From NCBI GenBank assembly GCA_021799535.1, contig JAJZAH010000002.1:16950-80949 (forward strand): DNA of 64,000 bases. The letters are read 5' to 3'. Both the position numbers and the translations under genes were made by a program. This DNA is from Nanobdellota archaeon. Lineage in GTDB: Archaea; Nanobdellota; Nanobdellia; Pacearchaeales; GW2011-AR1. Positions 11,065-24,388 of the stretch are shown here, piece by piece. Position 1 is the stretch's first letter. Every line of letters starts with the position of its first letter. Below the pieces are notes generated by a model that had not been told where the DNA came from, searched no databases, and saw nothing but the letters and a program-made list of their open reading frames with translations.

Positions 11065-12111
11065 TTAACCCTTCAATGACCCCATCTCTTTATTCTGAAT
11101 ATGTCTTTTTATCATACTTGGGATTATCCCGGCAATCACGAAATTCTTGTAAGTCAATATTCCTCTGTGCCTTCCAAGGGAAAGGATCATAGCTCTTTCT
11201 TTATGTACATATTTATTTAATGGCTTTCCTCTCTCCAAATTTATTATATTACTAGCTATAACCTTGGCATGTTCTATAGAATTTTGAGCTGTTTTTTCTT
11301 CTTTTATGTCTGTCACATCGCCCCCGACAAAAATGTTCCTGAACCCTTTTAGGTTGAGTGATTCGTCAGTTGATGCATACCCTTTTTTGTCAACAAGCTT
11401 GGGGAAACTTTTTCTTATAAAATCTGAATTTGGAGTTATTCCAACGCATAAAAAAGCTATGTCTGATTCTATCTTTTTTCCCCTGTCTGTGAAGAAATTC
11501 TCCTTGCTTCTGACTTTTCTGTTTCCTTTAATCAGTTCATTAAAAATTATCTTTACGCCCTTTTTTTCCAGGAATCTTTTAGCATACTCGCTTGCTTTCT
11601 CGGGCTGCCTTTCTATTAACCTATCCATCGCATGCACTATTGTTATTTTTTTATCATGGCACTTTGTTGCTATTTCTGCTGCAAGTTCGACTCCAGAGAG
11701 TCCTCCCCCTATTATAAGAACATTTTTTGAGTTGTGAAGGTCTTCATAATGGTTTCTTAGCCTGTTTGCCCTGCTTGTTATAAGGGCGTCGTGCTCTTTA
11801 AAGGGGAAACTGTATTTTGACCCTGAGCTTATAGCCAGATAATCGAATTTTATCTTTCTTTTTCCTACAAAAACCTCGTTGCCTGAAATCTTTTCAGCGC
11901 GTCCGATAATCACTTTCGCTTTTTTCAAGTAGTGTGTATGCATTATTTGTATGTCTTCGAGGCAAGCAGGGTCTGTTATTGCACTTAAAATAGAGGGAGT
12001 GAATTCAAAATAGTCTTTTGTATCAATGAGCGTGACATCAAAATCATTTTCGAGGGATTTCGCAATTTTGCTTCCAGCAAAGCCCCCGCCTATTATCGCC
12101 ACTTTTTTCAT
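11065..12111 (-). CDS. ndh: FAD-dependent pyridine nucleotide-disulfide oxidoreductase, NDH-2-like
   Basis: Two Rossmann dinucleotide motifs (VAIIGGGFAG and VLIIGGGLSGVE) plus a C-terminal GDV motif. Confidence 0.7.
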   Translation of the reverse strand: MKKVAIIGGGFAGSKIAKSLENDFDVTLIDTKDYFEFTPSILSAITDPACLEDIQIMHTHYLKKAKVIIGRAEKISGNEVFVGKRKIKFDYLAISSGSKYSFPFKEHDALITSRANRLRNHYEDLHNSKNVLIIGGGLSGVELAAEIATKCHDKKITIVHAMDRLIERQPEKASEYAKRFLEKKGVKIIFNELIKGNRKVRSKENFFTDRGKKIESDIAFLCVGITPNSDFIRKSFPKLVDKKGYASTDESLNLKGFRNIFVGGDVTDIKEEKTAQNSIEHAKVIASNIINLERGKPLNKYVHKERAMILSLGRHRGILTYKNFVIAGIIPSMIKRHIQNKEMGSLKG

Positions 12112-12224
12112 CTATCTTTGAAAAACGAGGGGGCGTTTTATAAAATTTTCCAAACATGAAAAAGTATTTATGAATTATAATCCTCCGGGGCAAATCATAT
12201 AAACTAAGGAAGTTTTTTTAGCAT

Positions 12225-13649
12225 ATGGAAGATAAAAGAGGTTTTTTTCATGCGACAAAAAAGTTTTTGCATGATAATATCTATATAAACAAGGTCCCTT
12301 CTTATGGCAATACAATATTTTACTCCTTTGGATTTATTTTGATAGCTCTTTTTATCCTTCTTGGGGTTACGGGGACCCTTATGGTCTTTTTTAATAAACC
12401 TTGGTGGCTGACGAGCTCCTTTGGTGTTTATGTAAGGAGTGTGCACATGTGGGCCGCCGAAGCTTTTATTATGTTTTTGATTCTTCACTTAGTCGTAACC
12501 TTTTCAACCTCCGCGTTTAGGAATAAGAAAATTGTGTGGGTTGCAGGAATAATCATGCTTTTCCTCTTCACTATACAAGCAGAACTGGGGTTTTCTATAA
12601 GAGGAGATTTTTCCTCCCAGTGGAGGGCTCTTCAGGGAGCAGATTTTTGGAATGGGAATCTTCTTGGCCATATAATAAACCCTCTTGATTACAGCCAAAT
12701 TTTCGGGATACACACTTTGGTTATCCCGCTTTTCTTGGTTTTTCTTGTCATCATTCATTATGGTGTGGTACGTGCAAGGGGTATTTCAAAGCCGCAAAAG
12801 AAAGGAGTGAAATATAAGATGGTTGAAGCGAATCACAATTCGCTTTACCTTCGGGCTTCTATTGTTATCGCGGTCGTTCTTGTATTGGGAATATTTATAC
12901 AATCTCCTTTTCTTTCCCCTGTTACCGTAAAAGAAGTCTCAATGCAAAATCCTTCATCTTTTGCCAGGACTTTAATTTCTGAGTACAATCACACTTCTGA
13001 TACCTCAACTTACCAGAATACGGTGGACCCTTATACTTTTGACACAAGAAGTATTTACATAACCCTTCCTTATGAAGACTATTTAAAACTGAACGGTGGG
13101 AAAAACATGATTTCTGTTCTTGAATATGAAAATCCGCCTGATATTGAAAAGACCATCAATCTTGCTGATGCTTACTTTGCGAATAATGGATCAATAAACC
13201 TCTCTAATAGCAATCCGATGGTATCAGTTGCGAGTGCACTTACAATAATGGGGCAAAGCGGGCTTTATGATGCAGAGATGAAATCCAGTTTACAGGGCGG
13301 TAATTCCGTTTACCTCGACAGGATATTGTCGGACACGGGTTATATGGATGAGAAGGCGGATGGACTTGGCCTGAGTCTTGAAGATTATGGAATGATAAAA
13401 GATGAGACGGGCGCTGGGATATACCCCCCTAATTCATGGTGGATGGCCCCCTTCAACCTTCTGGATAATACTGTTTTGAAAAATGATCCTAATCAAGATG
13501 CTGATGGCGGTTTAATTATCGGGATTTTAGTTCTGATTCTGGCGACTTTTCCCTGGCTTCCTTACATAAATAAGGTTCCGGAAAAGTTAGGCCTTTACAA
13601 GCTTTTTTGGAGAGAAGGAAGCGAAAATAAGGCTTCTGCTCATAAGTAA
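12225..13649 (+). CDS. Di-haem cytochrome b-like membrane protein with a large extracytoplasmic C-terminal domain
   Basis: Four N-terminal TM helices with H74-x13-H88 (RSVHMWAAEAFIMFLILH) and H163-x14-H178 (IHTLVIPLFLVFLVIIH), the b/b6 haem-ligand spacing. A soluble region of about 200 aa and a final TM segment follow. Confidence 0.7.
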   Translation: MEDKRGFFHATKKFLHDNIYINKVPSYGNTIFYSFGFILIALFILLGVTGTLMVFFNKPWWLTSSFGVYVRSVHMWAAEAFIMFLILHLVVTFSTSAFRNKKIVWVAGIIMLFLFTIQAELGFSIRGDFSSQWRALQGADFWNGNLLGHIINPLDYSQIFGIHTLVIPLFLVFLVIIHYGVVRARGISKPQKKGVKYKMVEANHNSLYLRASIVIAVVLVLGIFIQSPFLSPVTVKEVSMQNPSSFARTLISEYNHTSDTSTYQNTVDPYTFDTRSIYITLPYEDYLKLNGGKNMISVLEYENPPDIEKTINLADAYFANNGSINLSNSNPMVSVASALTIMGQSGLYDAEMKSSLQGGNSVYLDRILSDTGYMDEKADGLGLSLEDYGMIKDETGAGIYPPNSWWMAPFNLLDNTVLKNDPNQDADGGLIIGILVLILATFPWLPYINKVPEKLGLYKLFWREGSENKASAHK

Positions 13650-13676
13650 TATAAACTGCTTTTTCTTTTTCAAAGT

Positions 13677-15059
13677 ATGAAAAAGTATGAATCTTTTGAT
13701 CTTATAATAATCGGAGGTGGTACTGCGGGTGTTGAAGTTGCTTTTGAATCAACAAAGCTAAAGAAGAAGACTGCGCTTATAGAGCCGAATTTTATAGGGG
13801 GAATCTGTTTGAATACAGGGTGCATCCCCACAAAAACTTTACTTTTCTCTTCCCATTTATACTCCGAGATAAGGAGGGCACATGATTTCGGAATTGATGT
13901 TCCTGATGCTCGGGCAGATTTTCAGGCAATTATGAAACGTGCGAAATCCATTGTTGAAAACTCAAGGAAGAGTGTCGAGCTTGGACTTAACAATCAGTAT
14001 CTTAAAATTTTCAAGGAGCATGCTGTTTTCACAGGGATTAGGAAAGTTAAAGTAGGGGATGTGGAGATTTTAGGAAAAAAAGTAATCATCGCTGCTGGTT
14101 CGAAGCCACACGTGCCCCCGATTCCAGGTCTTCAGGATGTCGACTATTTGGTGGGGGGAACTCCGAATAATTCCAAAGAGGATATACTCAATTTGGAGAA
14201 GTTTCCGGGGTCACTTATTATAATCGGTGGCGGTTACATAGGTTTTGAGTTTGCGACTTTCTTTTCTGAACTTGGGAGCAAGGTCACGATAATTGAAGGG
14301 ATGGATAAAGTTCTGGGGGTTGTAGATGATGAGATTCGCGAAGTTTTGCTCAAAAAATATGTGAATAATAATTTTTCAATTTTGACAGATGTGAAAATAT
14401 CAAAGGTCTCACAACACGAAAATAAAGTAACTGTTTTTTTTGCCGATAAAAGCGGAAAAGACAGTTCTGTTTCGGGCGATGTGATTTTCATCGCTACGGG
14501 GAGAGTCCCATCAAGTTTTGAATTACATCCTGACAAGACAAACGTTGAAGTTGACGAAGGAGGAGCGATAAGGGTGAATGCTAACCTTGAAACTTCATGC
14601 AAAGGCGTGTATGCTGTTGGGGATATCACGGGGAAATTCTTTTTCGCCCACACGGCGAAAAGGGAAGGTCAGATTGCCCTCTTAAATGCATTTGGTAAGA
14701 AGAGCAAGAAGTTTAGTACTAATGCTATCCCCTGGGCCGCTTTTGTCGATCCGCCCATATCTGGCGTCGGAATAACTGAAAATAAAACGGAGACTGGAAT
14801 TTTGAAAGCCCATTTTTCCAGAGCTGCGCGTGCAGGAATAATGGGAGAACCTGAAGGTCTTTTGAAAATATGGTTTGACGAAAAGACAAAAAAAATTCTT
14901 GGGGCGCAGATGATCGGTCCAAATTCAGATGATTTGATCGGAGAATTCAGCACTCTTATAAATTGCGGAGGAACTGTGGACAATTTGCGTGAGATAATTC
15001 ATATCCATCCGACGCTTTCTGAAGTTGCGGATAGTTTAGTGGAAGTGAAAGAGAAGTAA
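13677..15059 (+). CDS. lpdA: Dihydrolipoyl dehydrogenase (E3)
   Basis: GGGTAG FAD motif, redox-active disulfide GGICLNTGCIPTK, and the C-terminal interface motif HIHPTLSE. Confidence 0.85.
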   Translation: MKKYESFDLIIIGGGTAGVEVAFESTKLKKKTALIEPNFIGGICLNTGCIPTKTLLFSSHLYSEIRRAHDFGIDVPDARADFQAIMKRAKSIVENSRKSVELGLNNQYLKIFKEHAVFTGIRKVKVGDVEILGKKVIIAAGSKPHVPPIPGLQDVDYLVGGTPNNSKEDILNLEKFPGSLIIIGGGYIGFEFATFFSELGSKVTIIEGMDKVLGVVDDEIREVLLKKYVNNNFSILTDVKISKVSQHENKVTVFFADKSGKDSSVSGDVIFIATGRVPSSFELHPDKTNVEVDEGGAIRVNANLETSCKGVYAVGDITGKFFFAHTAKREGQIALLNAFGKKSKKFSTNAIPWAAFVDPPISGVGITENKTETGILKAHFSRAARAGIMGEPEGLLKIWFDEKTKKILGAQMIGPNSDDLIGEFSTLINCGGTVDNLREIIHIHPTLSEVADSLVEVKEK

Positions 15060-15276
15060 ATTTATCCTCTTTTTTTAGTTCTAGCTTATACTTAAGAACA
15101 TTGTCGTTTGCTTCTTTTTCAAACGGTCTTTTAATTCCCTGTTTTTTTAATTCTTCATGCCTGAACTTTATATTGGATAATTCATGTAACAGGACACCTT
15201 CATTAGCTTTTTTATAATATCTTTTTATAAAATACTTTTTATCCGGAAGAATCATTTTCATATAAGCTCCGCCCAT
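14956..15276 (-). CDS. Doubtful hypothetical ORF (106 aa)
   Basis: K-rich ORF in the 440-bp gap after lpdA. Its last 34 or so codons run antisense through the lpdA 3' end. Confidence 0.25.
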   Translation of the reverse strand: MGGAYMKMILPDKKYFIKRYYKKANEGVLLHELSNIKFRHEELKKQGIKRPFEKEANDNVLKYKLELKKEDKFTSLSLPLNYPQLQKASDGYELSHANCPQFLRNL

Positions 15277-15500
15277 TTTCTGTAATAAAATTTTTTTTAT
15301 TAACTATTTTTATATTTATTATTAAATTTTTATTAAGTTTAATTTTTCTTCTTCAGAATTTAATGGATTCATTTAAATTATTAAGATTAATTATCTTGCT
15401 ATTTTTGTATGTTTTTTCTATTCGACGATGAAAAAAGAATTTTATTATAATCAGTATGATAACCAGAATAAAAATATCATTTTGTGTTCCTATACATGCT

Positions 15501-16865
15501 TTATCTCTTTTTTATATACCCTACAATTCTGTCAATAGCGGTTATCGCAGAATGAGGGAACATAAAAACAGGGATGTTATGCTCTTCCAGTTTTTGCGAC
15601 AATTTTTCCGTGAAATCGGACCCTGTCGAGACTACTATGATGGGTTTCTTTGTTCCTGCTTTTGCTTTTGAAATTATATTCGTTATATCTTCAGTGATGA
15701 GGGGGGTCTGGTAAAGTGCGACAAGTAATATAATGTCAACATTTTTGTCTGAAAGAATATTTGTCAAAGCATCTTTGTACCGTTGTGAAGTTGCATCTCC
15801 AGATATATCAAGAGGATTTCTTATGTGAACGTAATCTGGCATAGTCTTTTTCAGTGTTTTTTGAGTCTTCTCGGAAAGCTCTGCAAATTTAAGATTCCTG
15901 GACTCAGAAATAGCGTCAGTAGAGACGATCCCATAACCTCCTCCGTTTGTTATGATCTGAATTCTATTGCCTTTTATTGAAACTGGGTTTTCAAGAACGC
16001 TTGCGACATAAAACATTTCTTCCAGATTATCAGCCTTTATCATGTTGATTTGTTCGAAAATCCCATAATAAACTTCCTTTGTTCCGGCAAGGCTTCCGGT
16101 GTGCGATAAGGCCGCTTTTTTTCCTTCTTCGGAAAGACCGCCTTTCACCACGACAATCGGTTTTTTCTTGGCTACCTTCCTTGCTGTCTCGAAGAATTTT
16201 TTCCCGTCTTTTACCCCCTCGATATACATGCATATGACCCTTGTGTCTTTGTCCTCTGATAAGTATTCAAGGTAATCCGACTCATCGAGCTGGGTGGCAT
16301 TCCCATAACTTATAAATTTTGAGAATCTGTATCCTCTTGCAGCTGCGAGGTCGATTATCGCAAGTCCTATGGCCCCAGACTGGCAGACAAAACTTATCCC
16401 GCCGGGTTTTGGAAATTTCATCCTTTCTTTAGGGATAAACAGCGCGTTTAATGAAGATTTGGCATCATATATCCCGAGGCAATTGACCCCAACTGCCCTC
16501 ATTTTATTTTGGTTCAGAAAACTCTTTAACTTCTCTTCTGTTTTTTTATTTCCCATCTCTGAAAATCCAGAGGTTACAATTATAAGGTCCCTCACACCTT
16601 TTTCGTTGCATTCTTTCACGGAATCCATGACAGACTTTGCAGGCACTGCTATCACCGCAAGGTCAATTTTTTCCTTAGGATCTTTTATGCTTTTGTATGA
16701 AACTTTTCCAAGAACTTCTGAAGCACTTGGATTTATCGGTATGACTGTCCTTCCGGAACCGGATTCCATGATATTTTTCATGAGAACGTTCCCGACTTTT
16801 TCCGGATCTCTCGACGCTCCTATAACGGCAACGACTTTCGGATTGAAAAGATTTTTTAGCTCCAT
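15501..16865 (-). CDS. acdA: ADP-forming acetyl-CoA synthetase, alpha subunit (CoA-binding/ligase domains)
   Basis: N-terminal CoA-binding motif VAVIGASRDPEKVGN and the phosphohistidine loop ALSHTGSLAG. It starts 1 nt after the E2 gene ends. Confidence 0.8.
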   Translation of the reverse strand: MELKNLFNPKVVAVIGASRDPEKVGNVLMKNIMESGSGRTVIPINPSASEVLGKVSYKSIKDPKEKIDLAVIAVPAKSVMDSVKECNEKGVRDLIIVTSGFSEMGNKKTEEKLKSFLNQNKMRAVGVNCLGIYDAKSSLNALFIPKERMKFPKPGGISFVCQSGAIGLAIIDLAAARGYRFSKFISYGNATQLDESDYLEYLSEDKDTRVICMYIEGVKDGKKFFETARKVAKKKPIVVVKGGLSEEGKKAALSHTGSLAGTKEVYYGIFEQINMIKADNLEEMFYVASVLENPVSIKGNRIQIITNGGGYGIVSTDAISESRNLKFAELSEKTQKTLKKTMPDYVHIRNPLDISGDATSQRYKDALTNILSDKNVDIILLVALYQTPLITEDITNIISKAKAGTKKPIIVVSTGSDFTEKLSQKLEEHNIPVFMFPHSAITAIDRIVGYIKKR

Positions 16866-16866
16866 C

Positions 16867-18180
16867 TTAAATCTCTATGAACAAGTGTCCAGGGTCTTCG
16901 AGGTAAGTCTTTAATGTTTCAAGAAACCTTGAAGCTTCAGCGCCATCTATTATCCTATGATCAAACGTCAAGGACAGCGGAAGAACTTTTATTTTTTTTG
17001 ATGGTCTGTTCACATCCAGATTTTCAAATATCTTTCCGATTCCAAGTACAGCGCTTTCACCGGGGTTTATCAGTGGTGTCGCGTAAGTTCCTCCTATCGA
17101 TCCGTAATTTGTCAAGGTAAAAGTCGATCCTTTCATCTCCTCTGGTGATAGTTTTCTTTCTCTGGCTTTTGAAGCGAGCTCATTTATAGCTTTAGAAAGT
17201 TCTTCAATTGTCATGTTATCAGCATTTTTTACAGGTGGGACAACCAGTCCGACCGGAGTTTCAACAGCAATGCCTATATTGTAGAATTTTTTTACTATAA
17301 TCTCGTTATTGTCTTTATCAAGATAAGAGTTAAAGTAAGGATTCTCTTTCAGGACAGCTATTGAAGCCTTTACAATGAAAGGAAGAAGTGTTAGATGAGT
17401 GCCTTTCACGTTTTTCTTTTCTTTCTCTTTTAGGTTCCACAATTTTGTTATATTTACGTCTTCCATTGCAGTTACCTGCGGAATCGTGTTTGAGATGGTC
17501 AAGTTCTCGCTTATGGCTTTTCTTATACCTCTAAGAGGAACTCTTTCGATTTTTCCTAAGGGAGTTTTCTCTTTTGTCACAGGAACTGTCTGTTGGGGGA
17601 TTTCAGGGTTTAGTGGCAAATCTTTTTTGAGGATTCTTCCGTCAGTCCCGCTTCCTTTTATCTTTATCAGACTTATATTGTTCTCCCTTGCAAGTTCCCT
17701 CACTTCTGGAGACGCTAAGACTTTGTTGCTTTGCACCTCGCCCTTCTTCACAGAGACGTGTGATTTGTATTCAACGTCGGGTGTTTCCGGTGCCTCTTCC
17801 AAGACTCCCACAACAGCAAAGCCTTTTTTCTGCGGCTTTTCCTTGTCTTTGTTTTCCTTCACAGGAGGCTGCTCTTTTTTCTTCTGTTTTGTTTCTTCCT
17901 TTGGTGTTTCAGCAGTTTTATCCTCTTTTAATGAACTTTCGGATCCATCATCGATTGCACACAAGACTGCTCCGACTTTCACGGTGTCCCCATTTTTAAA
18001 GCCCAACTTTATTATTTTCCCGGTTTTTGGTGAAGGGAGGTCAACAACTGATTTATCTGTTTCTATCTGAACTATACTCTGGTTCTCTTTGACATTGTCT
18101 CCTTCTTTAACTAGCCACTTCACGAGTTCCCCTTCAGTTATCCCTTCTCCGACGTCAGGGAATTTAAAATCGTATGCCAT
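16867..18180 (-). CDS. Dihydrolipoamide acyltransferase (E2) of a 2-oxoacid dehydrogenase complex
   Basis: Lipoyl domain (VQIETDKSVVDLPSP), K/E/P-rich linker, E3/E1-binding domain (ASPEVRELARENNISL) and catalytic DHRIIDG. Confidence 0.9.
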   Translation of the reverse strand: MAYDFKFPDVGEGITEGELVKWLVKEGDNVKENQSIVQIETDKSVVDLPSPKTGKIIKLGFKNGDTVKVGAVLCAIDDGSESSLKEDKTAETPKEETKQKKKEQPPVKENKDKEKPQKKGFAVVGVLEEAPETPDVEYKSHVSVKKGEVQSNKVLASPEVRELARENNISLIKIKGSGTDGRILKKDLPLNPEIPQQTVPVTKEKTPLGKIERVPLRGIRKAISENLTISNTIPQVTAMEDVNITKLWNLKEKEKKNVKGTHLTLLPFIVKASIAVLKENPYFNSYLDKDNNEIIVKKFYNIGIAVETPVGLVVPPVKNADNMTIEELSKAINELASKARERKLSPEEMKGSTFTLTNYGSIGGTYATPLINPGESAVLGIGKIFENLDVNRPSKKIKVLPLSLTFDHRIIDGAEASRFLETLKTYLEDPGHLFIEI

Positions 18181-19154
18181 TATCCTTTTACGGAAAGCAC
18201 TTTGGTTATAGCTTTCTTGATTTTCTCCTTGTTCAATAAGTACAGTTGTTCGTAAGATGCAAGTGGCATGATAGTATCATACCCAGTTACTCTTTCGATA
18301 GGGGCTTCAAGCGAATAGAATGCACCCTCATTTATTCTTGCCATTATTTCGGCGGCGATTCCAAGATTCTTCGGAGCTTCATGAACTATCACCGCCCTAC
18401 CCGTCTTCTTTACAGAACTTATTATTGTTCCGGTGTCCAAGGGGGAGATGGTTCTTAAATCAATGACTTCAATGTCAGTTTTTAATTCCTCAACAGCCTC
18501 AAGGGATTCCCGAAGCCATGAGCCATAAGTTATGAGGGTCAGGGATTTTCCTTCTCTCACTATGTTTGCTTTCCCTAAGGGTATTGTGTAAGGCTTTTCT
18601 GGAACATCTTCTTTTATTGCCCTGTATATCCTTTTTGGTTCGTAAAATATCACCGGGTCAGGGTCTCTTATAGAAGATATCAGGAGTCCCTTGGCTTCAT
18701 AAGGTCCTGAAGGTATTACCACTTTTATCCCAGGAATATGCGCAAAAAAAGTTTCTGGAGATTCTGAGTGGTGTTCAAGGGCTCGTATTCCTCCCCCTAT
18801 CGGACATCTTAGAGTTATTGGGCAATGATATAAACCTCTTGATCTATTCCTTATTCTTGACGCATGATTGTAAACCTGATCCAAAATGGTTATTGAGAAT
18901 CCGTCGAATTGTATTTCCGGGACTGGCTTTAGCCCCATAACGGCCATTCCTATTGAAACTCCCATTATCCCTGCCTCAGCGAGAGGCGAGTCCATGACAC
19001 GATTGTTTCCATATTTTTTCGCGAGGCCGTCTGTAACCCTGAAAACCCCTCCATCTTCACCTATGTCCTCACCCAAAAGTACAATTGATTTATCATTTGC
19101 CATCTCATTGTCCAGAGCATTGTTTATCGCGTCTACCATATTCATTTTTGTCAT
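18180..19154 (-). CDS. 2-oxoacid dehydrogenase E1 component, beta subunit
   Basis: Transketolase-like pyrimidine-binding and C-terminal domains (VMDSPLAEAGIMG..., HEAPKNLGI), 324 aa. Confidence 0.9.
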   Translation of the reverse strand: MTKMNMVDAINNALDNEMANDKSIVLLGEDIGEDGGVFRVTDGLAKKYGNNRVMDSPLAEAGIMGVSIGMAVMGLKPVPEIQFDGFSITILDQVYNHASRIRNRSRGLYHCPITLRCPIGGGIRALEHHSESPETFFAHIPGIKVVIPSGPYEAKGLLISSIRDPDPVIFYEPKRIYRAIKEDVPEKPYTIPLGKANIVREGKSLTLITYGSWLRESLEAVEELKTDIEVIDLRTISPLDTGTIISSVKKTGRAVIVHEAPKNLGIAAEIMARINEGAFYSLEAPIERVTGYDTIMPLASYEQLYLLNKEKIKKAITKVLSVKG

Positions 19155-20020
19155 GCTGCCGTCGCCTCCGTAAATATTTTTGATATTACCGGGAGTCTAG
19201 CCAGATTATCGAGTTCAACTTGTTGGATAAATTTATATCCAAATTTCTCCTTTATCTCTTCCAAGATCAAGTCTCTGAATCTACTCTTGTCAATCTTTTT
19301 TCCCAAAATTCCTTCCACACTTTTCACACCCAATTCCTCTTTTGTATAACCACATGGGTTGATGTAATCAAAGCCTTCGATACCCTTGTCAGTTATGTAA
19401 AAATTGAATCCATGGTACGCAACGCCTTTGGAAATCTTTATTCCCTTTCCACCGACCTTGTAATTTTTTCCATCTTCAGTTACCCAGACATCTTTTCTGT
19501 CTTTTCTTTGCTTAATTTCCTCTCTTGCTTTTTCAATGTCGATGTCTTTGCTCTCTCCAATTTTTTCAACAACCTTAAATATCTTGGCATTTATGCCTAT
19601 TTTTTTTAAAGAGCTCATCATAGTCTGATCTATTAATGATTCATAGTTTCCAACCCCAAACTGCCTGTTTACAATTTCCTCATATTTTACTATTGGATAA
19701 AAAACTAACTGTCCTGGACCGATATACGTTGATCCCCCTCCTCTTGTCGATCTTCTGAATCCTATCCCCATTTTATTCAGATAGCTTATGATATTTTTTT
19801 CATCCTTGCTTCCTACTTTTTCTATAATCTCCTTTGAAAATTTGTTGTGATAATCTGCTCTTCCGAAACTTATTGTTGGAAAATGTTCAGTTACAAGAAT
19901 CAAATCTCCTATCCGATCAAATTCTCTTTTCTTTGAGAGAACTCTTTGTAAATTCTCTGTCTTTTCATAATCTGTTATTCCCAAATCAACCCATTGAGCG
20001 ACTTTTCCTTCCAAATTCAT
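19151..20020 (-). CDS. lipB: LipB-type octanoyl/lipoyl transferase with a charged insertion
   Basis: TRGGGSTYIGPGQLVFYP matches the LipB RGGxxTYHGPGQ motif. KVGGKGIKISKGVAYHGFNFY...INPCGY matches the catalytic Lys and PCG-Cys region. Confidence 0.7.
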   Translation of the reverse strand: MNLEGKVAQWVDLGITDYEKTENLQRVLSKKREFDRIGDLILVTEHFPTISFGRADYHNKFSKEIIEKVGSKDEKNIISYLNKMGIGFRRSTRGGGSTYIGPGQLVFYPIVKYEEIVNRQFGVGNYESLIDQTMMSSLKKIGINAKIFKVVEKIGESKDIDIEKAREEIKQRKDRKDVWVTEDGKNYKVGGKGIKISKGVAYHGFNFYITDKGIEGFDYINPCGYTKEELGVKSVEGILGKKIDKSRFRDLILEEIKEKFGYKFIQQVELDNLARLPVISKIFTEATAA

Positions 20021-21087
20021 TTACTCTCCTCTGCGATTTTTTTTATCTCATCAAGTTCTGGAATTAGTTCGTCAGGCAACTTTTCAAACAGGTAATTTAT
20101 TATGTCTTCAGCAGGGTAAGGTTTCATAGCCTCAAAGCTTTTGACCCCTTCTTCTACCTCTTTTTTTACCTGTTCTTGAATTTTCTTGCCTTCGGCTTCC
20201 GTTAAAATTTTTGCTTTTATAAGGTATTTTTTAAATCTTAACAAAGGATCAAATTTTTCATGCTTTTTTGCTTCTTCGGGTTTCCTGTATTTTGAAGCGT
20301 CGTCTGAAGTTGTATGGTCTCCCATTCTGTAAGTCAGGCATTCAATAAGTGTTGGTTTTCCTGTGTAAGCCTCCGTGAGAGCATCTTTTGTCGCTTTGTA
20401 AACTGCGAGGATGTCGTTGCCGTCTACTCTTATTCCTTTGAATCCGTAAGCTATTGCTTTTTGTGCTATAGTCTCAGCTTCAGTCTGTTCAGCTACAGGT
20501 AATGAGATAGCGAATTGATTATTCTGGCATAAAAAGACAGTGTGTGCATTGAATACTCCTGCAAAGTTCATTGCTTCATGGAAGTCTCCTTTTGATGTTG
20601 AACCGTCGCCGAAATATCCAATTGCTGCTGCTTTTTTCTTCTGATAGGCGAAGGCCATTCCAGCGCCTGTTGCATGTGGTATCTGGGATCCAACTGGGAT
20701 TGAGGGCATGAAGACATTCACATCTTTTGAAGATGCTCCCCTTTCATCCCCCTTGTGGTATAAAAAAAGTGCTTCTGGCTTTGCGCCCCTTGTAAGGTAG
20801 ACTCCATGCTCCCTGAAGGATGGGAAGGCTATATCATCTTTTTCCAAAGCGTAGGCTGAACCCACCTGGGCCGCTTCCTGCCCATAAAGTGATGCGTAAG
20901 TGTAAATTCTGCCTTGTCTTTGCAATAAAATTGATTCTTCGTCGAAAGCTCTTGACAAGACCATGAGATAATAAAGCTTTTTCAGCTCTTCTTTTGAGAG
21001 TTTCGGCATTTCCCTTTTGCTGACAATTTTGCCTGTTTCGTCGAGAATCTGCAAATAAGGCACCTCGAATTTTTTTATTATTTTCAT
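20017..21087 (-). CDS. 2-oxoacid dehydrogenase E1 component, alpha subunit (TPP-binding)
   Basis: TPP-binding GDGSTSKGDFHEAMNFA...N motif and YRMGDHTTSDDASKYR. I prefer the ATG at 21087 (MKIIKKFEV) over the listed TTG at 21105. Confidence 0.9.
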   Translation of the reverse strand: MKIIKKFEVPYLQILDETGKIVSKREMPKLSKEELKKLYYLMVLSRAFDEESILLQRQGRIYTYASLYGQEAAQVGSAYALEKDDIAFPSFREHGVYLTRGAKPEALFLYHKGDERGASSKDVNVFMPSIPVGSQIPHATGAGMAFAYQKKKAAAIGYFGDGSTSKGDFHEAMNFAGVFNAHTVFLCQNNQFAISLPVAEQTEAETIAQKAIAYGFKGIRVDGNDILAVYKATKDALTEAYTGKPTLIECLTYRMGDHTTSDDASKYRKPEEAKKHEKFDPLLRFKKYLIKAKILTEAEGKKIQEQVKKEVEEGVKSFEAMKPYPAEDIINYLFEKLPDELIPELDEIKKIAEESK

Positions 21088-21119
21088 TTTTAGCTGACCA
21101 ATCAAAAACGGGAGAGTTC

Positions 21120-21128
21120 TTTATAAAA
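21120..21128 (-). promoter_or_regulatory. TATA-like box upstream of the E1alpha operon
   Basis: tttataaaa lies about 35 nt upstream of the ATG at 21087. Confidence 0.35.
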
Positions 21129-21153: not shown

Positions 21154-22719
21154 TTATCCGAATATGCTCTCAAGCCACTTTATGAATTCCTGGATAATAC
21201 TTGGTTGTACACACTGATTGTTTGCACAAAAGTTGCTCTGGCATTCAAAATTATTCTCACATGAAATTCCTCCCTCTTTCTGAGGAAGATATGTTCCATT
21301 TTGGGAACAATAAGTTCCATTCTCTCTAATTCCAGGAGTTTTGCATGAAGGTGTTTTGATACACATTCCATCGCTGCATCCGAAGGGGCATTTGTATGCC
21401 TGTGCAACATCGTAAGTCACATTTCCGCTTAAGTTCTGGTATGCACAGGTTGTCTCCATAAGATATTCCCCCGAGGTCAAATTTAGGTCTTTCATGCTCA
21501 AGTTGTTTTTTATGAATATGTTTATGAGCTCTTTGGAGTCTGTCCCGTTAATTATGGGGACCGACGAGTTAAAACAACTATTTGTTGCGCTTATTTTTAC
21601 CTTCACGCCATTTGGCCCTGTTTGATTTATAATTACACTTCCTTTTTGGTATATATTGAATCCACCGTCGCTGTCATAGCAACCATTTTTTGAAGTTGTT
21701 CCATTAATACAAGCTCCGTCACTGCATCCAAAAGGGCATTTGTATACTGACCCCAAATCGAGCGCATTCCAATTGTTGCTACTGTAATTTATGTTTCCTA
21801 AGCAAGAACTTTCCATCAAGTATTCTCCTGAAGTTGCATTCAGATTACTTATATTTATATTGTCCTTATAGAAAGTAGTGAATACCTGGGATCCGGGAGT
21901 TCCATCTGCAAAAGGTACTGGAGAGTTGAAGCAGCTATCATATGAGGTTATATTTCCAAGGTTAGTTATTACTTTAACCTCTCCTTTAACATAATAATTT
22001 TTTCCACCGTCGCTGTCTGTACATGAAGGAGTTGTAAAATTGGTTTTACCCTGGACAGGGGCCTTTACGCATGCTCCATTGCTACACCCATAGGGGCATT
22101 TGTAGGATTCTCCCATAATAGCAGTGGTTGTTCCATTAAGAGTTTGAATTCCGCAAATTCCTTCAAATAAATACTGCCCTGAAGTTTGGTTTAAACTTCC
22201 CAGATTAATTCCTTTTGATGCGGCTATTTGAATGATGCTCCAGAAAGGGGTATAATTAGGCAAATTGAACGGCACATTAAAGCATCCGTCGTTGGCAAAA
22301 GCTTTTCCTGTTACGTTCGTTGTCAAATTAGTCATATTAACGCTAACTGAACCTTTTTGATAAATATTAAATCCTCCATCACTGTCCACGCATGATATTT
22401 TTAACTGGCTGTTCCGTGTAGAATTCGTATAATTGAAAGAGGTGTAGTTTCCGTCTGGTCCATAAACAACTCTTTGTATAGTAATCTTCATCCCTAAAGG
22501 AAAACTCCAGCTTTGCCCTGAAGCTAGGACGCCTGAGGTGACATAATTATATTCAATCTGAACTGAAGTTGAGTTTATGAAATCGACAAAAAATCCATTT
22601 GAACTGTTTAAGTAATTGATTGTGCATGTGTTTGCGCTGCAGGAGGATACTGCACCGATTAAACTTAATGACAAGAGCAATCCGATAAATGCTAGCATCG
22701 AAATGGTTTTATTCTTCAT
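21154..22719 (-). CDS. Secreted or surface Cys-rich protein with three repeats of about 106 aa
   Basis: Signal peptide (MKNKTISMLAFIGLLLSLSLIGAVSSCSA). Three units of C.DSDGG.N.Y.KG.V ... CFN ... SG(E/Q)YL.E..C ... YKCP(F/Y)GCS(D/N)G(A/M)C. Numerous N-x-S/T sequons. Confidence 0.75.
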   Translation of the reverse strand: MKNKTISMLAFIGLLLSLSLIGAVSSCSANTCTINYLNSSNGFFVDFINSTSVQIEYNYVTSGVLASGQSWSFPLGMKITIQRVVYGPDGNYTSFNYTNSTRNSQLKISCVDSDGGFNIYQKGSVSVNMTNLTTNVTGKAFANDGCFNVPFNLPNYTPFWSIIQIAASKGINLGSLNQTSGQYLFEGICGIQTLNGTTTAIMGESYKCPYGCSNGACVKAPVQGKTNFTTPSCTDSDGGKNYYVKGEVKVITNLGNITSYDSCFNSPVPFADGTPGSQVFTTFYKDNINISNLNATSGEYLMESSCLGNINYSSNNWNALDLGSVYKCPFGCSDGACINGTTSKNGCYDSDGGFNIYQKGSVIINQTGPNGVKVKISATNSCFNSSVPIINGTDSKELINIFIKNNLSMKDLNLTSGEYLMETTCAYQNLSGNVTYDVAQAYKCPFGCSDGMCIKTPSCKTPGIRENGTYCSQNGTYLPQKEGGISCENNFECQSNFCANNQCVQPSIIQEFIKWLESIFG

Positions 22720-22980
22720 TTAATAGAACCTCCCCTGAGATAGCGATTTAGACCTTTTCCAGTAAAGCCAACCCCCCAAAAACACAAAAACCCCTATTCC
22801 TGAGAAAAACAAGTATTCCGAAAGCCCCGTAGTTATCGACATTACTATCCCCCCGAGAACAATTATTATTCCCGCAATCATTGAAAAAATCCCTTTTATT
22901 TTGAAATCAAACCCTTCAACTTTATAACCCGTTGACAGGACTTTTTCACTTATGTTCTGTTTTTGGGTTTCCTCATCCAT
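22720..22980 (-). CDS. Small membrane protein (86 aa, 2 predicted TM)
   Basis: Two hydrophobic stretches. It abuts the start of the Cys-repeat gene with no gap. Confidence 0.5.
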   Translation of the reverse strand: MDEETQKQNISEKVLSTGYKVEGFDFKIKGIFSMIAGIIIVLGGIVMSITTGLSEYLFFSGIGVFVFLGGWLYWKRSKSLSQGRFY

Positions 22981-23287
22981 CTTTTTTTGAAGATATTTTC
23001 ATATTTAACTGTTTCTCTTCATCGACTTTTTCTTGGTGTCTGAAGAGGATCCAAGACAAAGCAATTATTATGAGTCCGACAAAAGTAAAGATAATCTCTG
23101 CTTCAATGTGGCTCATCCCGGGAGGGTAACTTAACTTCCCGACGCCAGTCCACATTAATATAAGTCCGACAGCAAAAACTATTGTCACAATCAATTGGTA
23201 GCCAAAGACAAAATTCTTCTGGTTGGGTTTTTCCACCCACTCTATTTGGATAAGAAGTTTATATTGCTTGTGGATTCTCTTGCACAA
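22973..23287 (-). CDS. Small membrane protein (104 aa, 2 predicted TM)
   Basis: Two hydrophobic stretches. Overlaps the next gene by 8 nt. Confidence 0.5.
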   Translation of the reverse strand: MCKRIHKQYKLLIQIEWVEKPNQKNFVFGYQLIVTIVFAVGLILMWTGVGKLSYPPGMSHIEAEIIFTFVGLIIIALSWILFRHQEKVDEEKQLNMKISSKKDG

Positions 23288-23320: not shown

Positions 23321-23950
23321 ATGGGAAAGATGGTGATGAATGCTGCAGAGTCTGCAGAGCTAATAAAAAAATTTGTTTCTGTTCCGCAATCACAGGTTGT
23401 GAAGAATGTTTCTGAGATAAATGTAAAAGCACCTCTTGTCCTTAAGATTCTTTCAAAGGATGCCGTGCATAAGACGGATGTAGGGGGTGTGAAAATTGTA
23501 ATGAACCAAGAACTGCTCGGCAAATCGTTTGATGAGCTTGTGAATGTATCCAAATTTAACAAGATGAATTTTGAAGGAATTTACATCCAGGAGTTTGTCA
23601 AGGGGGTAGAAACAATAATTGGAATAAAGAGGGATCCAATTTTTGGGCCAATGATCGTCTTTGGGCTTGGAGGGGTTTTTGCAGAGGTTCTCAAAGACAC
23701 TTCAACAAGGAGATGCCCTATAAGCTTAGATGATGCGCAGGAGATGATAGACTCGCTGAAGTCTTCGAAAATATTCTATGGCTTCAGAGGGATGAAAGTA
23801 AATTTTAATAATCTTAAAAAATCTCTTGTTGAGATATCAAAACTTCCGGAGAAATATAAGGAAGTCGAAGAGCTGGATATAAACCCTTTTATCTTAACGG
23901 AGAAAAAAGGTTTTGCTGCTGACGCAAGGGTTGTTATAAGGAGCGAATAA
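23321..23950 (+). CDS. acdB: ADP-forming acetyl-CoA synthetase, beta subunit (ATP-grasp)
   Basis: KILSKDAVHKTDVGGVKIV and DINPF motifs of the ACD ATP-grasp subunit. The ATG at 23321 avoids overlap with the upstream minus-strand gene. Confidence 0.7.
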   Translation: MGKMVMNAAESAELIKKFVSVPQSQVVKNVSEINVKAPLVLKILSKDAVHKTDVGGVKIVMNQELLGKSFDELVNVSKFNKMNFEGIYIQEFVKGVETIIGIKRDPIFGPMIVFGLGGVFAEVLKDTSTRRCPISLDDAQEMIDSLKSSKIFYGFRGMKVNFNNLKKSLVEISKLPEKYKEVEELDINPFILTEKKGFAADARVVIRSE

Positions 23951-24040: not shown

Positions 24041-24388
24041 TTACTTTTTGGTTTTTTTGAATTCATTTATTGCTTTTTCAACGAGCTGCATATACATAAC
24101 TGCAGGTCCCCCGCCCATGAGGGCAGCGACCCATGCAGCTTCCATTACTTCTTTTTCTGTTGCACCTTTTTCAAGGGCTCCGTTTACGTGGTAAGCAATG
24201 CACCAGTGGCAATGAGCAGAGGTAGACAAAGCTACAGCGATTAGCTCTTTTTGTTTTGAGTCAAGTGCTCCAGGAGACTCTACTGCCTGCATAAAACTGC
24301 CGAACCCTTTCATCTGGTCAGGCCATGCCTTTGAGAATCGGCCCAAGGAAGCGTTTGCTTCATCAAGAAGATTTTTCATTTCTCCCAT
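24041..24388 (-). CDS. Carboxymuconolactone decarboxylase/AhpD-like family protein
   Basis: CHWCIAYH (CxxC...H) motif. GGAGGTGA Shine-Dalgarno sequence 5 nt upstream of the ATG at 24388. Confidence 0.7.
   Translation of the reverse strand: MGEMKNLLDEANASLGRFSKAWPDQMKGFGSFMQAVESPGALDSKQKELIAVALSTSAHCHWCIAYHVNGALEKGATEKEVMEAAWVAALMGGGPAVMYMQLVEKAINEFKKTKK

Follow-up and report, generated by a model that had tools for sequence, protein, structure and literature searches.

The window, which is the whole stretch of 64,000 nucleotides analyzed here, contains five genes that look like one translationally coupled operon for a pyruvate dehydrogenase (PDH) complex, a LipB-like transferase and the alpha subunit of ADP-forming acetyl-CoA synthetase (ACD), set in a conserved block. 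In the reading that we prefer, to which we assign a probability of roughly two in three, this block would provide a route to acetate and ATP, with the LipB-like protein salvaging pre-formed lipoyl groups for the complex. The source genome (G000) is a DPANN (Pacearchaeota-type) assembly of 0.75 Mb that is 87% complete, and the organism is a tiny symbiotic, host-dependent archaeon. The conserved block covers approximately 13 kb and includes, besides the five-gene operon, the genes for the ACD beta subunit (AcdB), E3, an NDH-2/FSP1-like flavoprotein, a cytochrome b and an AhpD-like protein:

11065..12111, minus strand: NDH-2/FSP1-like NAD(P)H:quinone oxidoreductase (Pyr_redox_2; best PDB match FSP1/AIFM2, 132 bits)
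12225..13649, plus strand: di-haem cytochrome b, upstream of E3 (PF13631/PF00033; b6-like N-terminal half with a 250-aa extension)
13677..15059, plus strand: E3, dihydrolipoyl dehydrogenase, convergent on AcdA (TIGR01350, 393 bits, cut-off 408.8)
15501..16865, minus strand: AcdA, ACD alpha subunit (NDP-forming acyl-CoA synthetase), last in the unit (TIGR02717, 483 bits, cut-off 567.15)
16867..18180, minus strand: E2, dihydrolipoyl acyltransferase (Biotin_lipoyl, E3_binding and 2-oxoacid_dh)
18180..19154, minus strand: E1beta (Transket_pyr PF02779, 146 bits; Transketolase_C PF02780, 127 bits)
19151..20020, minus strand: LipB-type lipoyl/octanoyl transferase, 289 aa (PF21948, LplA-B_cat, 77 bits)
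20017..21105, minus strand: E1alpha, TPP-binding, of a PDH-type 2-oxoacid dehydrogenase (PF00676, 289 bits)
23321..23950, plus strand: AcdB, ACD beta subunit, ATP-grasp (PF13549, ATP-grasp_5, 171 bits)
24041..24388, minus strand: CMD/AhpD-like CxxC protein, beside AcdB (PF02627, 77 bits)

The coordinates of the open reading frames and the Pfam domains place E1alpha, the LipB-like gene, E1beta, E2 and AcdA in this order on the minus strand, and the junctions read ATGA, ATGA, TAATG and TAAgATG. The overlaps of 4, 4 and 1 nt and the 1-nt gap claimed in the original prediction are thus exact at all junctions. The start of E1alpha is more likely to be the ATG at position 21087 than the TTG at position 21105; a TATA-like box (TTTATAAA) is located at positions 21120-21127, and oligo-T runs that begin at positions 15470-15474 follow the AcdA stop codon. 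The identical five-gene order was recovered in a genome from the sister genus (G368) and in three contigs from near relatives (L102, L103 and L104), which argues that it is not due to chance. Judged by the overlaps and the conserved order, the genes are predicted to form a single unit of transcription and translation, as had been proposed.

The conservation extends beyond the operon. The order AcdB, E1alpha, lipoylation gene, E1beta, E2, AcdA and E3, with AcdB and E3 on the opposite strand, is kept in G368, L102, L103, L104 and L105. AcdB diverges directly from E1alpha in L028 and in L102 to L105, and E3 occupies the equivalent position in these same five contigs. Downstream of AcdA, the relatives have E3 and in some cases also the cytochrome b and the NDH-2-like gene; the former lies upstream of E3 in L103 and L104 (72% identity), and the latter is kept in L102 to L105. 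The AhpD-like protein has a homolog with 89% identity at the equivalent place in L103, and both L102 and L104 have one too. A thioredoxin-like CxxC open reading frame heads 25 of the 74 clusters for 2-oxoacid dehydrogenases (OADH) in DPANN. The separation of AcdB from E1alpha in the window represents one lineage-specific insert of 2.2 kb. Since the relatives have AcdB divergent from E1alpha and E3 after AcdA, we consider the whole set to be one block, and the earlier description of the partners as scattered does not hold. The coordinates do bear out the positions given for them, with E3 convergent on the plus strand behind the cytochrome b gene and the ACD beta subunit at 23321-23950 on the plus strand.

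AcdA contains the CoA-binding, Succ_CoA_lig and Ligase_CoA_2 domains, matches the structures 2csu (325 bits) and 4xyl (290 bits), and keeps the phosphohistidine motif SHTGSLAG in the alignment with 2csu. It is a genuine ACD alpha subunit rather than a succinyl-CoA ligase; its score lies under the cut-off of TIGR02717, the curated model for acetate--CoA ligase alpha subunits, and its putative substrate is acetyl-CoA. AcdB, with the conserved-His motif AVHKTDVGGV, is the only ACD beta subunit found in G000 (a single tblastn match), and a second, shorter ACD alpha paralog is encoded elsewhere in the genome. In the ACDs of Pyrococcus and Ca. Korarchaeum (2csu, 4xyl), alpha and beta are likewise encoded as separate subunits, with identical domains in alpha and a phosphohistidine motif in each of the two, but in the window the alpha subunit is predicted to be co-translated with E2, and the beta gene diverges from the head of the operon. 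ACD genes are located within 10 kb of OADH genes in other families as well, and the suggested hard-wired route from 2-oxoacid to acyl-CoA to acid plus ATP agrees with the way in which OADH genes stay syntenic with AcdA and AcdB in several DPANN lineages.

The LipB-like protein scored below the cut-offs of all NCBIfam LipB models (e.g., 65.9 against 83.55 for TIGR00214 and 80.9 against 155 for NF010925), and contains two inserts at about residues 57-83 and 146-177. Its AF2 model (pLDDT 91) has a LipB fold, with the LipB structures 2qhs and 1w66 as the top Foldseek matches. With the LipB proteins of E. coli, M. tuberculosis (1w66) and T. thermophilus (2qhs) it shares the fold (TM 0.81-0.85), the Cys/Lys dyad, the RGG loop and the second pocket His, but it is about 70 residues longer, the loop reads RGGG, and its genome lacks LipA and ACP. 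The catalytic dyad, K188 and C223, is invariant (motif RGGGSTYIGPGQ). In the T(Y/F)HGPGQ motif, the His that corresponds to the acyl-pocket residue His78 of E. coli LipB (PMC9307952) is replaced by Ile in the window and by I, L or V across the clade to which the protein belongs; every lipA-linked LipB compared keeps it.

This clade has a support of 100/97 in the tree and consists of 26 rows, of which 9 are from genomes without lipA and 17 are database proteins from unchecked genomes. A search with TIGR00510 recovered no lipA in any of the ten tested genomes that carry a LipB of the clade, including G000; these genomes are 87-100% complete where reported, with no figure reported for G438. lipA was present in all eight genomes carrying other LipBs, and the same search was positive in over 40 further DPANN genomes, where the gene usually lies within the OADH cluster. 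The association between the clade and the absence of lipA amounts in essence to a single event in evolution and should not be counted as ten. The protein appears to belong to a new, well-supported clade of LipB-like proteins in which the dyad is kept and the pocket His replaced, and for which all tested genomes lack lipA. A LipB of the clade is also encoded in a GcvH-Redoxin-Lpd module that lacks any OADH. We know of no LipB that works without a lipoyl synthase.

The gene inventory of G000 is consistent with lipoate salvage, although the weight of any single absence is low since the genome is 87% complete. PF00364 matches once in G000, in the lipoyl domain of E2, and no second lipoyl protein was found. 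The LipB-like gene is the sole PF21948 gene, and no other enzyme for lipoyl attachment is encoded in the genome, which lacks a lipoate ligase and a detectable LplB. Fatty-acid synthesis is absent, there was no match to ACP (PP-binding), and nothing in the genome points to a source of octanoate. As the clade has been seen only in genomes without lipA, the LipB-like enzyme most likely loads E2 with a pre-formed lipoyl group obtained by scavenging, rather than with octanoate.

Alternatively, the protein could be an ordinary octanoyltransferase that uses octanoyl-CoA instead of octanoyl-ACP, with sulfur added by a lipoyl synthase that was overlooked, either because its gene is missing from the assembly or because it represents an unknown kind of enzyme. 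The conserved Cys/Lys dyad, RGG loop and LipB fold are compatible with such a function, E. coli LipB uses C8-CoA (PMC9307952), and archaeal LipB proteins without ACP are a known puzzle (PMC10332631). The incompleteness of the genome also leaves room for it, as does an AF0577-type radical SAM family in G000 beyond the three candidates compared for co-occurrence. We nevertheless regard it as unlikely, given that lipA was found in none of the ten clade genomes despite its recovery from so many others, that the pocket His is consistently replaced, that no octanoate source is apparent, and that three radical SAM candidates in G000 do not co-occur with the clade.

If the LipB-like enzyme does transfer pre-formed lipoyl, the donor could be a thioester. 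In a more speculative proposal, which we consider quite improbable, the clade would represent lipoyl synthase-independent transferases acting on lipoyl-CoA, made from lipoate, ATP and CoA by the ACD in reverse. The LipB-like protein and the ACD would then together provide ATP-dependent lipoate salvage for which neither LplA nor LipA is needed, and the position between E1alpha and E1beta would be a swap site for the alternative salvage solutions of DPANN lineages. 

The slot between E1alpha and E1beta exchanges lipoylation genes among close relatives, a second feature that appears to be new: the flanking genes are 80-93% identical and the LipB proteins only 33%, and in L105 the slot holds a complete LplA-LplB salvage ligase. 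The original prediction was correct in placing lipB between the E1 genes. The presence of a lipoylation gene there is not unusual in itself, since OADH clusters in the class as a rule include or adjoin such a gene, and most DPANN clusters examined encode lplA and an lplB of approximately 95 aa; the unusual feature is the kind of LipB.

The three E1 and E2 subunits appear from sequence comparisons to belong to a pyruvate dehydrogenase complex of the Firmicute/archaeal type. E1alpha scored 441.3 bits against the NCBIfam PDH equivalog TIGR03181 (PDH_E1_alph_x), above the cut-off of 411.35, and contains the TPP motif GDG-x(~27)-NN, which reads GDGSTSKGDFHEAMNFAGVFNAHTVFLCQNN; its nearest homologs are DPANN proteins called PDH E1alpha by PGAP. 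E1beta scored 301 against the subfamily model NF006667, under its cut-off of 321. Both the lipoyl-lysine motif (ETDKS) and the catalytic motif (FDHRIIDGA) are present in E2, and E3 has the redox disulfide CLNTGC at residue 44 and the His-Glu dyad HPTLSE at residue 444. The best solved relatives of E1alpha (1w85, 282 bits), E1beta (3duf, 360 bits) and full-length E2 (E2p, 3duf_I) are all from the PDH of Geobacillus stearothermophilus, the E2 of which also has one lipoyl domain, an E3-binding domain and a catalytic domain. Compared to such Gram-positive-type complexes with a heterotetrameric E1, the host is here archaeal, E3 is encoded on the opposite strand, E1alpha and E1beta are separated by a lipoyl transferase gene, and an ACD alpha gene comes last, with no pta-ack route. 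The OADH operon of Thermoplasma acidophilum has the order E1alpha-E1beta-E2-E3 and is served by a bipartite LplA-N/LplA-C salvage ligase. That complex is likewise archaeal and reliant on scavenged lipoate, and its E2 catalytic domain (3rqc) matches with 160 bits, but in the window E3 lies outside the operon, and the attachment enzyme is of the LipB type, inside the operon and without an accessory adenylation domain.

The statement that the substrate cannot be read from the sequence was therefore too pessimistic, given the E1alpha score and the best matches of all three subunits; it stands insofar as sequence cannot fix the substrate, because Thermoplasma-type complexes take both pyruvate and branched-chain 2-oxoacids. 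It is very unlikely that the complex is instead a branched-chain 2-oxoacid or acetoin dehydrogenase, with the ACD recovering ATP from branched-chain acyl-CoAs. The characterized Thermoplasma complex does take branched-chain substrates, ACD isoenzymes use branched acyl-CoAs, and E1beta matches PDH and the Thermus branched-chain dehydrogenase (BCKDH, 332 bits) almost equally well. E1alpha, however, scored only 193-210 bits against BCKDH, the acetoin E2 model gave only 59 bits, and neither a class-IV aminotransferase (Aminotran_4) nor another pyruvate-oxidizing enzyme was found in G000.

With pyruvate as the substrate, the pathway would start from PEP, which PPDK or PEP synthase would convert to pyruvate, given that two PPDK_N proteins but no pyruvate kinase were identified in G000. 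The PDH complex would yield acetyl-CoA, CO2 and NADH, and the ACD would release acetate and make ATP. Ldh_1_C was not found in G000, and NADH would probably be re-oxidized by the neighboring flavoprotein, a candidate NADH sink, and the cytochrome b, which matches cytochrome b6 in the PDB with about 50 bits and has the His pairs H74-x13-H88 and H163-x14-H178. A genome search for both PFOR and lipA had been suggested, and neither was found; of 40 further genomes from the family, 24 encode POR_N, and in this lineage the PDH complex would replace the pyruvate:ferredoxin oxidoreductase that most of the family carries. A mainly antioxidant role, similar to that of the mycobacterial Lpd-DlaT-AhpD-AhpC system, in which lipoyl-E2 and E3 would relay thiol redox to AhpD-like and thioredoxin-like proteins and carbon flux would come second, is highly improbable: the conserved AhpD-like gene next to AcdB, the thioredoxin-like frames heading OADH clusters and the OADH-free GcvH-Redoxin-Lpd module agree with it, but the intact TPP motifs, the E2 catalytic motif and the predicted co-transcription with ACD point to acyl flux, to which such a role might be added.

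The PDH to ADP-forming acetyl-CoA synthetase reading is right but not new, as it has already been described in DPANN. The complete OADH set in a reduced genome is real; its novelty is not, since 75 of the 401 genomes sampled from the class encode E2 and such sets are known from other DPANN. In nanohaloarchaea, the PDH genes (SVXNc_0064-67) adjoin AcdA (SVXNc_0068) by locus tag, and PDH and AcdA are described as yielding acetate and ATP (PMC10266531); PDH with AcdA has also been described for Woesearchaeota (PMC8421398) and Micrarchaeota (PMC5864196). The route from pyruvate via acetyl-CoA to acetate and ATP proposed here is the same, but these three studies do not discuss lipoylation genes or translational coupling, nor do they describe the block with AcdB, E3, cytochrome b, NDH-2-like and AhpD-like genes. 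Because the carbon pathway is in the literature, the main contribution of the operon is a clear and conserved case of such hard-wiring. It raises the question of how an archaeon that depends on a host achieves lipoylation of the one lipoyl protein that it has. With its small size, clear boundaries and distinct signature residues, the clade lends itself to a test of its function with one recombinant protein and the E2 lipoyl domain. If true, a LipB branch that is independent of LipA would be a fourth way to put lipoate on proteins, and it would show what symbionts must take from their hosts.

The genes for E1alpha, a LipB-like protein, E1beta, E2 and AcdA of the 2-oxoacid dehydrogenase (OADH) cluster are arranged head-to-tail on the minus strand in the ORF list of the window. 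Their order and junctions (ATGA, ATGA, TAATG and TAA-g-ATG, in order) agree exactly with the coupled five-gene unit of the original prediction, as judged from the ORF list, the Pfam and NCBIfam matches and the junction sequences. The unit and its neighbors are as follows.

20017-21105, minus strand: E1alpha (PF00676)
19151-20020, minus strand: LipB-like protein, with an LplA/LipB-family catalytic domain (Pfam, NCBIfam)
18180-19154, minus strand: E1beta (Pfam, NCBIfam)
16867-18180, minus strand: E2, with lipoyl, E3-binding and catalytic domains
15501-16865, minus strand: AcdA, NDP-forming acyl-CoA synthetase alpha subunit (Pfam, NCBIfam)
13677-15059, plus strand: E3, with a CLNTGC disulfide and an HPTLSE dyad
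23321-23950, plus strand: AcdB, with an ATP-grasp_5 domain and an HKTDVGGV motif
24041-24388, minus strand: CMD/AhpD-like CxxC protein, conserved beside AcdB
11065-15059: trio of an FSP1/NDH-2-like flavoprotein (minus strand), a 474-aa di-haem cytochrome b6-like protein (plus strand) and E3 (plus strand)

GGAGG-like motifs precede LipB and E1beta, and the start of E1alpha is probably ATG 21087. A TTTATAAA box occupies 21120-21127, and there are oligo-T runs downstream of the AcdA stop (from about 15470); these TATA-like boxes and T runs were identified by eye, and a scan for bacterial promoters and terminators, which is ill-suited to archaea, gave nothing above shuffles. The public gene call for the LipB-like protein (P0001) has an internal start and is 250 aa long; the 289-aa form is favored by comparison with homologs and by the ATGA junction at which it overlaps E1alpha. 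The possibility that AcdA is a succinyl-CoA ligase, which the original prediction had set against its own reading, was rejected on the scores (50 bits versus 483 bits).

We compared the gene order at 74 loci with OADH or LipB genes, drawn from 401 sampled genomes of the class, and on seven further contigs of public assemblies, all assemblies being MAGs. The commonest layout in the DPANN was lipA > E1alpha > E1beta > E2 > (E3), with lplA and an lplB of about 95 aa nearby, and 72 of the 74 E2-bearing genomes contained a lipoyl-attachment gene, usually within a few kb of E2. The exact order in the window, with AcdA last and E3 convergent, was found again in a genome of the sister genus (G368) and in three contigs (L102, L103 and L104) with E1alpha proteins 80-85% identical to that of the window. 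AcdB is directly divergent from E1alpha in all of these, with a CMD/AhpD-like gene beyond AcdB in L102-L104. An NDH-2/FSP1-like gene is also present in L102-L105, and cytochrome b is located upstream of E3 in L103 and L104, where the whole flavoprotein/cytochrome b/E3 trio is kept. Given this recurring arrangement, the partner genes, originally described as scattered, constitute a single conserved block.

In the window, AcdB is separated from E1alpha by a 2.2-kb insert (21154-23287, minus strand), found at this position in the window's genome only, in which two small membrane ORFs accompany a 521-aa secreted protein rich in Cys. The secreted protein matches no Pfam family; it carries many N-glycosylation sequons, and its Cys-rich repeats (C-x-DSDGG...) number three or four. 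A 150-aa HExxH membrane protein sits between AcdA and E3 in L103; in the window (15070-15430, minus strand), a frameshift or an assembly error has divided the homolog of this protein between two frames. For AcdB, ATG 23321 was preferred to a longer TTG start (23195), since the alignment with homologs begins at 23321 and a TATA-like box is located upstream. Cytochrome b and E3 each have a ATATAAAC box about 25 nt upstream of their ATG, and E3 may thus have a promoter of its own. ACD genes were also found within 10 kb of OADH genes in several other families (L030, L035, L036, L038, L047, L101, L108 and L109). Neither an E2 nor a LipB-like match was found in G395, which belongs to the genus of the window and is 90% complete; presence of the entire block may therefore differ within that genus.

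The window lies at C6:16950-80949 in a genome assembly (G000) of 746,762 bp, 8 contigs and 87% completeness. The nearest homologs have sources named Pacearchaeota, Woesearchaeota and Nanoarchaeia, which agrees with a DPANN/Pacearchaeota-type genome. The search for PFOR and lipA proposed in the original prediction found neither POR_N nor lipA in the whole 87% complete assembly, and no ACP-type PP-binding domain was found there. POR_N was identified in 24 of 40 other genomes of the same taxonomic family and E2 in only 2 of 28 (G000 and G368), from which it follows that the OADH here replaces the usual ferredoxin oxidoreductase of the family. The substrate had been considered unreadable, but the scores favor pyruvate, with branched-chain 2-oxoacids a less likely alternative on sequence alone. 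E1alpha exceeds the NCBIfam equivalog cut-off for the pyruvate dehydrogenase (PDH) E1alpha (441 versus 411) and matches the solved structure of Geobacillus PDH at 282 bits, as compared to 210 for human and 193 for Thermus branched-chain dehydrogenase; the best structure match of both E1beta and full-length E2 was also Geobacillus PDH. No class-IV aminotransferase (BCAT), LDH/MDH or pyruvate kinase was found in G000, and two PPDK_N proteins were identified. Given PPDK as a pyruvate source and the lack of a BCAT match, pyruvate is the most likely substrate. AcdB is present once in the genome. A further AcdA paralog, shorter and lacking its own beta partner, is encoded outside the window (C6:4088-5608; 37% identity; His loop SLHTGSVSS).

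G000 contains a single LplA/LipB-family gene and a single lipoyl domain, located in E2. The LipB-like protein is predicted to adopt a LipB fold: its AF2 model has a pLDDT of 91, and the best Foldseek matches were the LipB structures 2qhs and 1w66 (TM to target 0.85 and 0.81), with LplA and LipM ranked well behind. The catalytic residues Lys188 and Cys223 are invariant, and the fold ranking and motifs rule out LipM, LipL and LplA. The protein scores under every NCBIfam LipB cut-off, and two inserts make it longer than canonical LipB by about 70 residues. When 5.8 billion proteins were searched, a tight set of 19 clusters from DPANN MAGs was recovered (E <= 1e-48, 259-309 aa), followed by a gap and then by bacterial LipB at E ~1e-18. 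In the maximum-likelihood tree, the LipB-like proteins form a clade (support 100/97) of 26 rows, namely nine LipB-type proteins of lipA-less genomes and 17 proteins of this database set, from genomes unchecked for lipA, with the LipBs of lipA-bearing DPANN and of bacteria placed outside. The clade has the motif RGGG(S/A)xY(I/L/V)(G/A)PGQ, as compared to RGGxxT(Y/F)HGPGQ in canonical LipB. The replaced His (His78 in E. coli, His83 in M. tuberculosis LipB; Ile100 in the protein of the window) forms part of the lining of the acyl-binding pocket, and C8-CoA is also accepted by the E. coli enzyme (PMC9307952).

According to Borziak et al. (PMC3904984), LipA is present in every archaeon with LipB, a rule that is broken by this clade. 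No lipA was found in any of 10 genomes that carry the clade (G000, G368, G358, G264, G098, G011, G146, G328, G125, G438), of which G011 is 100% complete as judged from marker genes, and it was present in 8 of 8 genomes that carry other LipBs (G168, G004, G384, G056, G353, G138, G021, G365), two of which (G384, G056) have the order E1alpha-LipB-LipA-E1beta-E2. The association is thus complete among the genomes tested, and represents one evolutionary event rather than ten independent ones. The lipoyl-lysine motif is kept by E2 in the four lipA-less members examined (the window, with the lysine at K43, L028, L030 and L031).

No replacement lipoyl synthase emerged among the three G000 radical SAM proteins compared by co-occurrence with the clade (ThiH/HydG-like, 0 of 8 genomes; 341-aa and 269-aa proteins, 0 of 9 each). 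Of the seven radical SAM proteins in G000, the NCBIfam classification covered six: these three, TYW1, whose role is already known, a 221-aa protein that sits in a variable cassette, and an AF0577-type protein. The seventh is a 471-aa protein (C6:116151-117563) that looks Elp3-like by eye. For an LplB-type accessory domain, which could make LipB a ligase, only sub-threshold noise was obtained in G000. We found no paper on lipoylation in the DPANN.

The slot between E1alpha and E1beta varies in content. The flanking proteins of the window and L103 are all 74-93% identical, as compared to only 33% for the LipB-like proteins, whereas the LipB of the more distant G368 is 64% identical and its other proteins 44-84%. 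Likewise, the window groups with L102 and L103 in a concatenated E1alpha, E1beta and E2 tree (support 100), with G368 outside, but with G368 in the LipB tree (support 100), where L103 is placed elsewhere. L105 has a fused LplA-LplB ligase in the same slot on the opposite strand, and divergent LplA-like genes occupy it in other genomes (L058, L075, L086). The identity contrast, the tree conflict and the varied contents together identify the slot as a recurrent replacement site for lipoylation genes. The LplA-like proteins encoded at the slot within the OADH operon of other lipA-less DPANN (L058, L075, L086, L059, L046, L071) are divergent, with an altered lipoyl-AMP lysine motif (KISGxAQ) and no lplB neighbor.

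In the proposed pathway, PEP would be converted to pyruvate via PPDK/PEPS, pyruvate to acetyl-CoA, CO2 and NADH via E1/E2/E3, and acetyl-CoA to acetate and ATP via AcdAB. NADH would be re-oxidized by the adjoining FSP1/NDH-2-like flavoprotein and the di-haem cytochrome b (H74-x13-H88 and H163-x14-H178), and the LipB-like enzyme would lipoylate E2 from a scavenged, pre-formed lipoyl donor, one candidate being lipoyl-CoA from ACD run in reverse. This 0.75-Mb DPANN genome has its membrane cytochrome b beside a candidate NADH:quinone reductase, and in relatives the trio is followed by a weak DoxX-like gene. A thioredoxin-like CxxC ORF of about 90 aa heads 25 of the 74 DPANN OADH clusters (loci L028-L101), and together with the AhpD-like neighbor hints at an added lipoamide-linked thiol-redox role or relay.

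PDH followed by AcdA has already been described as a DPANN route to acetate and ATP (PMC10266531, PMC8421398, PMC5864196), and the PDH and AcdA genes are neighbors by locus tag in nanohaloarchaea (PMC10266531). The original reading of a route from 2-oxoacid to acyl-CoA to acid plus ATP was therefore right but not new. The overall interpretation was partly supported, the scattering of the partners being a part that did not stand. Members of the same LipB clade are also encoded in a GcvH-Redoxin-Lpd-LipB module that lacks an OADH (L107, L029). This module, located at 5419-9807 in L107, includes a DSBA-like protein, GcvH, Redoxin, an Lpd-like and a LipB-like protein, with no OADH E2 found in the genomes concerned, and resembles a peroxidase system that depends on a lipoyl protein, with this LipB clade serving it. 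The novelty of the operon appears to lie not in the pathway but in the swapped lipoylation slot and in the LipA-independent LipB clade, which, since it is also found in a module without an OADH, resembles an enzyme used generally for lipoyl attachment in lipA-less DPANN.
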